Shown here piece by piece: positions 6,009 through 7,561 of a stretch of DNA of 23,946 nt. The stretch is from Promethearchaeota archaeon. Lineage in GTDB: Archaea; Asgardarchaeota; Thorarchaeia; Thorarchaeales; Thorarchaeaceae. The translations under genes were made by a program, and so were the position numbers. The notes below the pieces were generated by a model. It was not told the DNA's origin. It did not search any database and was given only the letters and a program-made list of their open reading frames with translations. The number at the start of each line of letters is the position of its first letter. Position 1 is the stretch's first letter. The DNA lies in NCBI GenBank assembly GCA_027031765.1, contig JALVPN010000040.1, positions 153,546-177,491 on the forward strand, written 5' to 3'.

Positions 6009-6103
6009 GCGACCGTGGTCTAGTCGGTTAGGACGGAAGCCTCCCAAGCTTCCAACCCGAGTCGATTGACATCGCGGGAATTCGAATCTCGGCGGTCGCA
6101 CCA
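6009..6103 (+). tRNA. tRNA-Gly(CCC) with a 19-nt intron at position 53/54 (6062..6080), CCA encoded
   Basis: Acceptor GCGACCG/CGGTCGC, anticodon arm GAAGC-CT-CCC-AA-GCTTC, T-stem CCGAG/CTCGG. Removing 6062..6080 restores TTCGAAT and a 76-nt tRNA. BHB: central helix CCCG/CGGG, bulges AG|T and AA|T, intron stem CGAT/ATCG. Confidence 0.93.
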
Positions 6104-6158: not shown

Positions 6159-6165
6159 TTTAAAG
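6159..6165 (+). promoter_or_regulatory. Putative TATA box of the box C/D sRNA
   Basis: TTTAAAG at -28 to -22 from the sRNA terminal stem at 6187. Confidence 0.6.
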
Positions 6166-6186: not shown

Positions 6187-6268
6187 ATGTGGCGAGTGAT
6201 GAATGCAATGACCCCTCTGAGCTCTATTATGGCGATGACTGGGATCTTGAGTTATGAGCTCGCCACAT
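6187..6268 (+). ncRNA. Box C/D methylation guide sRNA; predicted D-guide target tRNA-Leu(CAA) C34
   Basis: 10-bp terminal stem ATGTGGCGAG/CTCGCCACAT; box C GTGATGA 6196-6202; D' CTGA 6217-6220; C' GCGATGA 6232-6238; degenerate D ATGA 6254-6257; 14- and 15-nt guides; upstream TATA. Confidence 0.8.
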
Positions 6269-6324
6269 TACTTTCGGTGACCCCCGCCCCCGTTGTACGT
6301 TCTATCGAACAATCCGCGCAATGC

Positions 6325-6361: not shown

Positions 6362-7561
6362 ATGTTTCACGATTTCATAGAAGACGAACTGAGCCGTCAG
6401 AGTATATTCAGAGCTGAAGAGTTTCTGTCTATCGACTATGTACCTGAGCATCTACCCCACCGTGAAGAGGAGCTACGAACACTTCTCCGTGGTTTCAAGA
6501 CCCTTATCTCTGCTCCCGGACGTACAAGTCCGCGCTTCGTAATCGAGGGCCCCGTCGGGACTGGTAAAACGGCTGTTGCAAAGCGTTTTTCTGAAGAGCT
6601 TGTCACAGCTGCACGGAAACGTGGAGTGCGGCTGCACGGAATCCACATAAACTGCCGCGTCAACAAGAGTCCCTTCCTTGTATACCTCCGCGTCCTCAGA
6701 GAGTTCAGACCAGACTTTCCCCGGCGCGGACACTCCCCTGAGGAGCTCTTGCAGATTATCCTCGACACTCTTGATGAACAAGACCGGTATGTCCTGTTGA
6801 TACTGGACGAATTCGACTATTTCATTATCAACCCGCGAGGGCAAGAGATACTATATGCATTGACCCGGCTGGTCGATGACCGTCTGAACGAACAGCAGCG
6901 GATTTCTTTGCTCCTCATTGGACGCGACTTGCAGTCCAGCTTGGGTACACTTGACTATAGCACCCTCAGCACACTCCAACACAATTCGCTTCGCTTTCAG
7001 AAATACAGTGCAGTAGCCTTGTATGACATCCTACACGAACGTGTCGCACTGGCATTTCAAGACGGCGTTGTACTGGATGACACACTGCACCTAATCTGCG
7101 ATATTGCTGCCGAGTACGGTGACGCACGATATGCGATTGAACTGCTCTGTCGAGCCGGCAAACAGGCCGAACAGGTCGGGTCTGATTACGTGGTGCCTGA
7201 GTTTGTGCGCAAGGCAAAGGCAGACACACATCCCGAGCTCCGAAAAGAAGTATTCGAATCACTACCACTCCACAACAAACTGCTCCTCTTAGCAGCAGCG
7301 AGGCAGCTACGGGGTGTCCAAGATGCATATGTCACAATGGGCGATGTGGAAGACATGTATCGTACTGTTTGCGAGGAGTACAACCAGGCACCACGTGCCC
7401 ACACGCAGATATGGGAGTGGGTTCAAGATTTTGCAGCCCACGGCATTCTTGACACAAAGAAGTCCGGCCCTGGGCAACGTGGGCAGACAACTCTAATTGG
7501 ACTTTCCGACTTGCCGGCAGAGATGCTTGAACAGTTCCTATTGCAGCTCATTGAGGAGTGA
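6362..7561 (+). CDS. cdc6: Orc1/Cdc6 replication initiator
   Basis: DYVPEHLPHREEEL, Walker A GPVGTGKT, Walker B LILDEFD, GDARYAIELL, C-terminal winged helix ending GQRGQTTLI. Confidence 0.97.
   Translation: MFHDFIEDELSRQSIFRAEEFLSIDYVPEHLPHREEELRTLLRGFKTLISAPGRTSPRFVIEGPVGTGKTAVAKRFSEELVTAARKRGVRLHGIHINCRVNKSPFLVYLRVLREFRPDFPRRGHSPEELLQIILDTLDEQDRYVLLILDEFDYFIINPRGQEILYALTRLVDDRLNEQQRISLLLIGRDLQSSLGTLDYSTLSTLQHNSLRFQKYSAVALYDILHERVALAFQDGVVLDDTLHLICDIAAEYGDARYAIELLCRAGKQAEQVGSDYVVPEFVRKAKADTHPELRKEVFESLPLHNKLLLLAAARQLRGVQDAYVTMGDVEDMYRTVCEEYNQAPRAHTQIWEWVQDFAAHGILDTKKSGPGQRGQTTLIGLSDLPAEMLEQFLLQLIEE

Follow-up and report, generated by a model that had tools for sequence, protein, structure and literature searches.

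What is encoded between the tRNA-Gly(CCC) gene (6009–6103) and the orc1/cdc6-like open reading frame (6362–7561) of this archaeon, and on which RNAs would its product act? The original prediction was an unannotated box C/D sRNA at 6187–6268 that guides the 2'-O-methylation of the wobble nucleotide C34 in tRNA-Leu(CAA). The window, by which the whole analysed stretch of 23,946 nucleotides is meant, corresponds to C40:153546–177491 of a 2.95-Mb assembly (229 contigs, 59% G+C), and the related genomes are labelled Candidatus Thorarchaeota (Asgard archaea).

Anatomy and conservation of the box C/D sRNA

The analysis confirmed that positions 6187–6268 (+) are a genuine, unannotated box C/D sRNA with two K-turn motifs and two guides. 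Its features are the following:

6159–6165 (+): TATA-like element TTTAAAG, about 25 nt 5' of 6187; a putative promoter element, judged from the sequence
6187–6268 (+): box C/D sRNA, bounded by the 11-bp terminal stem of the source genome; conserved core 6190–6265
6190–6197 (+): 5' strand of the terminal stem (conserved GGCGAGY), pairing with 6258–6265
6198–6202 (+): K-turn core of box C, GAUGA, made up of three loop bases and the sheared GA; UGA invariant
6206–6216 (+): D' guide CAATGACCCCT; core ATGACCCC (6208–6215) near-invariant, TGACCCC invariant
6217–6220 (+): box D' CTGA; NUGA among relatives
6221–6233 (+): short D'-C' hairpin, 6221–6223 with 6231–6233; 93% paired
6234–6238 (+): box C' K-turn core GAUGA; UGA invariant, architecture like that of box C
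6242–6253 (+): D guide GGATCTTGAGTT; core 6243–6252 invariant, G6249 being the fifth base upstream of box D
6254–6257 (+): box D ATGA; only GA is family-invariant, CTGA in some relatives
6258–6265 (+): 3' strand of the terminal stem (RCUCGCC plus A), pairing with 6190–6197

The terminal stem, the four boxes and the TATA element are all found where the original prediction had placed them. In the source genome the terminal stem comprises 11 bp (6187–6197 with 6258–6268), and the fold energy of the 82-nt stretch is −29.9 kcal/mol (z = −4.1 versus shuffles). The box C core (6198–6202) falls inside TGATGA (6197–6202) and directly abuts the terminal stem. The K-turn next to the closing stem, characteristic of C/D sRNAs, is conserved in its geometry, namely a covarying stem of 7–8 bp (7 bp for GGCGAGY/RCUCGCC), three loop bases and GA, opposite NNGA and the other stem strand; neither GA dinucleotide varies among the 58 copies. 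Since this geometry is found twice, the RNA is a two-K-turn C/D RNA. The internal boxes, NUGA at 6217–6220 and GAUGA at 6234–6238, are bridged by a covarying hairpin of 3–4 bp, in which both sides have changed at all four modelled pairs. If the K-turns are taken to include the three bases that follow each GA, 12 nt remain for the D spacer and 11 nt for the D' spacer, in keeping with guide spacers of about 12 nt. The D guide had originally been given as 6239–6253: the letters are as quoted and G6249 is indeed the fifth base from box D, but the guide proper consists only of the 12 nt from 6242 to 6253.

According to BLAST, 22 of the 24 genomes from the same family contain the element (75–84% identity). 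An alignment of 58 distinct Thorarchaeota copies was used for covariation analysis and for building a covariance model (R1). Conservation of the boxes in relatives, the lack of which was to count against the prediction, is evident from this alignment: no copy departs from UGA in boxes C, D' and C', from TGACCCC (D' guide), from GATCTTGAGT (D guide) or from the GA that ends box D, and variation is seen at the start of each spacer, in the loop of the hairpin and at the two leading positions of box D. Pairing amounts to 95% in the terminal stem and to 93% in the inner (D'-C') stem, with compensatory changes (in the terminal stem from G-C to A-U, the last pair being U:G, C-G or U-A). None of 500 shuffles reached the observed pairing, which dropped to 32–53% when the partner columns were shifted by 1–3 positions.

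The covariance model scores the source copy with 82.7 bits (E = 7.7e-19) and matches all 26 sampled Thorarchaeota relatives plus the source genome with E = 1e-18 to 1e-24. In all, 87 of 151 sampled Asgard genomes have a match, one per genome, counts that overstate independence because the genomes are related and that come from a non-exhaustive sampling. The matches outside the Thorarchaeota carry GATCTTGAGT at an equal distance from box D, which is mostly a canonical CTGA, and keep the D' core as (U)CUGACCC(C). Box D is degenerate in the source genome (ATGA), and the CU is not conserved in Thorarchaeota, but CTGA is present in G001, G011, G016 and most other Asgard orthologues, with unchanged spacing. 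Because the D guide core and its spacing are kept together with a mostly canonical CTGA, the selection of C34 is independent of the degenerate box D of the source genome. Against the curated Rfam C/D families (e.g., sR12, sR1, sR2, and SNORD33) the best scores were 11–17.5 bits (E = 0.6–9) versus gathering thresholds of 38–45 bits; the sRNA belongs to no curated Rfam family.

The genomic setting is also conserved. A TTTAAG/TTTAAA-like motif lies at an equal distance upstream of the sRNA in 20 aligned relatives, and in 54 of 55 Thorarchaeota loci (L070–L124, retrieved via the Orc1 protein) the sRNA is located about 150 nt upstream of orc1/cdc6 on the same strand, the lone exception being a locus without upstream sequence. 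The linkage to orc1 was also seen in the Asgard families f3 and f21 (loci L238–L241 examined); in f13 an Orc1 paralogue is about 800 nt away from the sRNA, and the sRNA loci of f7 and f19 have no adjacent orc1. The sRNA/orc1 site may be near a replication origin. Directly behind the terminal stem, at 6269–6285 (+), the aligned Thorarchaeota relatives share a conserved motif consisting of (A/T)TACTTTCGG and then ACC(T/C)C, which may act as a terminator, be a piece of the 3' end, or contribute to the orc1 promoter or to an origin. One of the loci, L124 (JADWMG010000114.1), comes from a bin labelled Actinomycetota, although its contig carries the Thorarchaeota sRNA and the start of orc1, and this contig is probably mis-binned.

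The genome encodes the three proteins with which a box C/D sRNA would be expected to assemble. Fibrillarin and Nop5 are encoded by adjacent genes on C217 (PF01269, 295.6 bits; PF01798, 221.8 bits), and a gene for L7Ae is present (PF01248, 94.9 bits). Distinct from the C217 pair is a weak fibrillarin-family match (28.5 bits) at C40:116463–116726 (−), which lies in an open frame of 291 aa a few hundred bases from the gene for tRNA-Leu(UAA) and from another tRNA gene.

The D guide and the two leucine tRNAs

The predicted target was found with aragorn on C143 (23248–23356) as a tRNA-Leu(CAA) gene with a 23-nt intron at 37/38. Positions 6242–6253 of the sRNA pair with ACUCAAGAUCC of this tRNA (positions 30–41) by 11 Watson-Crick pairs and one G:U pair (position 30), and C34 is opposite G6249, the fifth base upstream of box D, as foreseen. 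The duplex of 12 bp has the length of a typical archaeal guide duplex and exceeds the antisense match of at least 9 bp, with the target opposite the fifth base, that is expected of a guide. What was not foreseen correctly is the anticodon stem, which had been predicted as UGGGA/UCCCA. The actual anticodon arm is GCGGA-CU-CAA-GA-UCCGC, so the 12th C of the string ACUCAAGAUCCC, the absence of which from tRNA-Leu(CAA) was to count against the prediction, is indeed missing; the duplex nevertheless remains 12 bp long.

In the 2.95 Mb of the assembly there are just two copies of the 10-nt target core ACTCAAGATC, one in tRNA-Leu(CAA) and one on the strand antisense to the sRNA gene itself, and, this antisense strand aside, there are only four sites assembly-wide that can form 12 bp with not more than one G:U. 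Among 37 tRNA genes, 12 contiguous pairs are possible only with tRNA-Leu(CAA) and tRNA-Leu(UAA), all others allowing nine at most. The comparison of guide and tRNA in relatives, suggested as a check at the outset, gave an invariant guide core in the 58 copies and the target sequence in every Thorarchaeota tRNA-Leu(CAA) gene read, and the target is also present in other Asgard families. The 37/38 introns of Thorarchaeota tRNA-Leu(CAA) start with AUC (AUG in G010) and thus copy positions 38–40; because of this mimicry the complement of the D guide is identical before and after splicing. Taken from the sequence evidence, the sRNA is supported as a guide predicted to 2'-O-methylate C34 of tRNA-Leu(CAA) to Cm34.

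On tRNA-Leu(UAA) the D guide also forms 12 bp, of which three are G:U pairs, with G6249 opposite U34 in one of these. The duplex energy is −13.8 kcal/mol, versus −17.7 kcal/mol on tRNA-Leu(CAA). In vitro studies of guide duplexes have shown that a G:U pair at the methylation site is poorly tolerated, which makes Um34 on tRNA-Leu(UAA) doubtful. A second sRNA with an A at the site facing position 34 was not found in the assembly, where the sole occurrence of ATCTTAAGT lies antisense to the gene for tRNA-Leu(UAA). The single sRNA is the only candidate guide for both leucine tRNAs in the assembly.

The tRNA-Leu(UAA) gene of the source genome is located at C40:115915–116035 (−) (locus L066), about 37.5 kb before the window. 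It is without an anticodon-loop intron, and its T loop is instead enlarged by about 29 inserted nt. The form in G004 and G019 is similar, the genes of G007 and G017 are intronless, and in most relatives tRNA-Leu(UAA) contains an intron at 37/38.

The D' guide and the introns of tRNA-Leu(UAA)

What, then, does the second guide pair with? In the pre-tRNA-Leu(UAA) of 23 Thorarchaeota genomes, the 37/38 intron contains a GGGGUCA that hardly varies and that is the complement of the guide core ATGACCCC, GGGGUCA(U) being located 11–14 nt past the 5' splice site. All 23 genome-matched pairs of guide and intron form 6–11 contiguous pairs, most commonly nine. Energies computed for the D' guide on the intron are −15 to −16.5 kcal/mol. 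The heptamer GGGGTCA is present in 18 of 20 distinct, otherwise dissimilar introns, and the next unrelated 7-mer in six. A search with the intron pattern gave matches in 20 of 26 genomes of the family and only one more in the phylum (f5), as compared to three matches in 151 genomes for a reversed-pattern control. The base nearest box D' is paired in 10 of the 23 Thorarchaeota guide-intron pairs, which is about chance. Covariation between D' guide and intron within the Thorarchaeota is thus weak, and the support for the pairing there is the conservation of both partners.

In other Asgard families the complement of the D' guide, GGGUCAGA, is found in the D arm of tRNA-Leu(UAA), about 16–20 nt upstream of the anticodon stem. 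There the D loop is separated from the 3' strand of the D stem by some 24 inserted nt, a non-canonical intron, and the complement lies within them. A pattern search in tRNA-Leu context revealed GGGUCAG(A) in this D-arm insertion of tRNA-Leu(UAA) in f2, f4, f6, f7, f19, and f24, f4 having it in tRNA-Leu(CAA) as well; the control gave two matches in 151 genomes. When the introns of f4, f7, and f19 were compared with the guide of the same genome, duplexes of 8–12 bp were obtained, the base nearest box D' pairing as U-A, A-U or G:U in three.

The D' guide is not always accompanied by such a site. The tRNA-Leu(UAA) of the source genome, G004, G019, G007, and G017 is without an anticodon-loop intron and no anchor was found in these genomes, yet the D' guide is kept; nor was an anchor found in f3 or f13, where the guide is also retained. 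Methylation directed by the D' guide would be without obvious use, because the selected base lies in the intron.

Other targets of the D' guide were looked for and no mature-RNA target was found. The rRNAs were scanned in the complete 16S and 23S sequences of G009, G019, G026, G036, and G060 and in the partial rRNAs of the source genome. The only match, of 8 bp, is to a variable hairpin of the LSU rRNA of G026 and G060, which is absent from G036 and from Thorarchaeota, and rRNA was rejected as the target on these grounds. Among the 37 tRNA genes of the source genome the best match (9 bp with one G:U) is to the D loop of tRNA-Gly(UCC); the base that the guide would select there is a D-loop G, which to our knowledge is not a methylation site. 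The matches in the source assembly at C210:1258, C110:105447, and C40:131590 look like coding sequence (at C40:131590 aragorn also found no tRNA; the other two were judged by sequence context only). The same holds for the long exact targets in the genomes of f3 and f13, the antisense strand of the sRNA aside, in which aragorn also found no tRNA. The combined pattern ACTYAAGATC...GGGTCAG matched only the antisense strand of sRNA genes.

Possible functions and relation to known guide RNAs

The reading that we favor, and that we consider probable, is that the sRNA is a Cm34 guide for tRNA-Leu(CAA) which in addition engages pre-tRNA-Leu(UAA) at two sites, one of them by docking to the intron. We infer that the sRNA is independently transcribed, and it would be expected to assemble with L7Ae, Nop5, and fibrillarin. 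The D guide of the resulting sRNP would pair with tRNA-Leu(CAA) along its anticodon loop and the 3' side of its anticodon stem, bringing C34 into the methylation position, and the same guide would pair with tRNA-Leu(UAA) with a G:U at 34. Recognition of pre-tRNA-Leu(UAA) would be bipartite, by the D guide and by the D' guide on the intron, and the docking site in the intron (about −15 kcal/mol) could compensate for the weaker, wobble-containing D duplex. Methylation of position 34, or at least binding of the sRNP, would thereby be tied to the unspliced precursor. Somewhat more doubtful, with slightly less than an even chance of being correct, is the more specific proposal that the introns of pre-tRNA-Leu(UAA) carry a docking site dedicated to the D' guide, that wobble methylation or an sRNP-assisted maturation depends on the intron, and that the site was kept while the intron moved from the D arm to the anticodon loop.

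It is also conceivable, but in our view unlikely, that Cm34 is formed on tRNA-Leu(CAA) only and that the two-site pairing with pre-tRNA-Leu(UAA) is non-catalytic, the sRNP acting as a chaperone of folding or splicing or in timing, with no methylation of U34. The G:U pair at position 34 and the intronic location of the D' site would fit such a role, as would the D-arm anchor, which lies directly beside a putative bulge-helix-bulge strand, as read from the sequence. It has to be set against this that the assembly contains no separate guide for U34. Moreover, both bacteria (with TrmL) and eukaryotes (with Trm7) 2'-O-methylate position 34 of tRNA-Leu(UAA), which makes a need for the modification plausible. 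Less likely again by a good deal is that the D' guide has another methylation target, in rRNA or in another small RNA, and that the matches to introns are incidental or secondary. No conserved site was found in the complete 16S and 23S rRNAs of five Asgard genomes, and in several families a complement of 7–9 nt appears repeatedly in the introns of one and the same tRNA, which occupy two different positions. In favor of this alternative are the retention of the D' core across the phylum, genomes lacking any anchor among them, and the incomplete rRNA of the source assembly.

Scarcely to be expected, finally, is that the element is not a trans guide at all but a cis-acting leader or an L7Ae-binding regulatory structure of orc1/cdc6. 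This idea is suggested by the place of the element on the orc1 strand, some 150 nt upstream of that gene, in 54 of the 55 Thorarchaeota loci and likewise in f3 and f21. But the element is conserved in f7 and f19 without an adjacent orc1, a TATA-like element of its own precedes it, its terminal stem is closed, and its invariant stretches are exactly the two guides, which match tRNA-Leu.

The sRNA is a known kind of RNA, wobble C/D guides having been described from Pyrococcus, Haloferax, and Pyrobaculum, in a new Asgard lineage. The variant feature appears to be that a separate second guide is devoted to a site inside the intron, a site that has been kept through a change in the position of the intron. 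A link between a tRNA intron and C/D-guided methylation of the anticodon arm is familiar from archaeal pre-tRNA-Trp, the intron of which is itself a box C/D RNA guiding Cm34 and Um39. In tRNA-Trp, however, the intron is the guide, whereas in the Asgard case it would be the target or docking site of a separately encoded guide. Bacterial TrmL and eukaryotic Trm7/FTSJ1 are protein-only enzymes for the ribose methylation of position 34 of tRNA-Leu. For eukaryotic tRNA-Leu(CAA) it has been reported that the modification of C34 by Trm4 needs the intron (PMC4090602). TrmL, Trm7/FTSJ1, and Trm4 act on the same tRNAs and the same nucleotide as the Asgard sRNA would, but without a guide RNA, so that the analogy is functional only.

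In Pyrococcus, four C/D sRNAs were predicted for position 34 of the CAA- and UAA-anticodon forms of tRNA-Leu, of tRNA-Met, and of tRNA-Trp, one for each (Clouet d'Orval et al., 2001, as cited in PMC7994747 and PMC7668247). The prediction for C34 of P. furiosus tRNA-Leu(CAA) is listed in PMC7668247, in which Cm34 was not detected in the tRNAs analysed. Like these guides, as they are portrayed in the two later papers, the Asgard sRNA would be a trans-acting C/D RNA with the wobble nucleotide of UUR-reading leucine tRNAs at the methylation position. Unlike them, in a comparison by these descriptions, a single Asgard sRNA would serve both leucine tRNAs and has a second guide that pairs with an intron.

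Also related in kind are sR-tMet of Haloferax volcanii and sR49 of Pyrococcus, trans guides for Cm34 of elongator pre-tRNA-Met that pair partly with the intron (PMC2584109). In the haloarchaeal pre-tRNA-Met the pairing includes intron sequence, and methylation must therefore precede splicing (PMC2584109). The Asgard sRNA, too, is a predicted trans-acting C/D sRNA whose pairing includes intron sequence. However, one guide of sR-tMet spans the exon-intron junction, whereas the Asgard D guide pairs with the exon (and the three bases that open the intron), and the D' guide separately addresses a site within the intron, about 11–20 nt away, in introns that differ between lineages. In Sulfolobales, an H/ACA sRNA directs the formation of pseudouridine 35 in intron-containing pre-tRNA-Tyr (PMC2651775); here as there a guide RNP is predicted to act in trans on the anticodon of an intron-containing pre-tRNA, but the class of RNP and the chemistry differ.

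In the literature searched, no paper on such guide RNAs in Asgard archaea was found. In a survey of Pyrobaculum only mature tRNAs were scanned, and most of the tRNA-targeting sRNAs had one guide without a target. In the case described here the second guide, an apparent orphan, has its conserved complement inside tRNA introns, which occupy two positions and come from several Asgard families. If the pairing with the intron is functional, it would provide a concrete and testable role for tRNA introns, would make it worthwhile to screen orphan guides once more on precursors, and would link guide-RNA modification to tRNA splicing in the closest archaeal relatives of eukaryotes. If docking to the intron is true, there would be a selective reason to retain introns in tRNA-Leu(UAA), and archaea would have a counterpart to the eukaryotic tRNA-Leu(CAA), in which modification of C34 depends on the intron.

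Insertions at unusual positions were also observed in several other tRNA genes. The tRNA-Gly(CCC) gene (6009–6103, +) contains a non-canonical intron, an insertion of about 19–24 nt in the T arm; both Rfam and aragorn called the gene and skipped the insert. In other Asgard families, a leucine tRNA gene of G093 (locus L283) has two insertions before the anticodon, and leucine tRNA genes of G036 (loci L206 and L213) have insertions in the variable arm and in the T loop. Within such an insertion, tRNA-Leu(UAA) of G036 carries GGGGUUCAGA, which is one extra U away from the complement of the D' guide of this genome.
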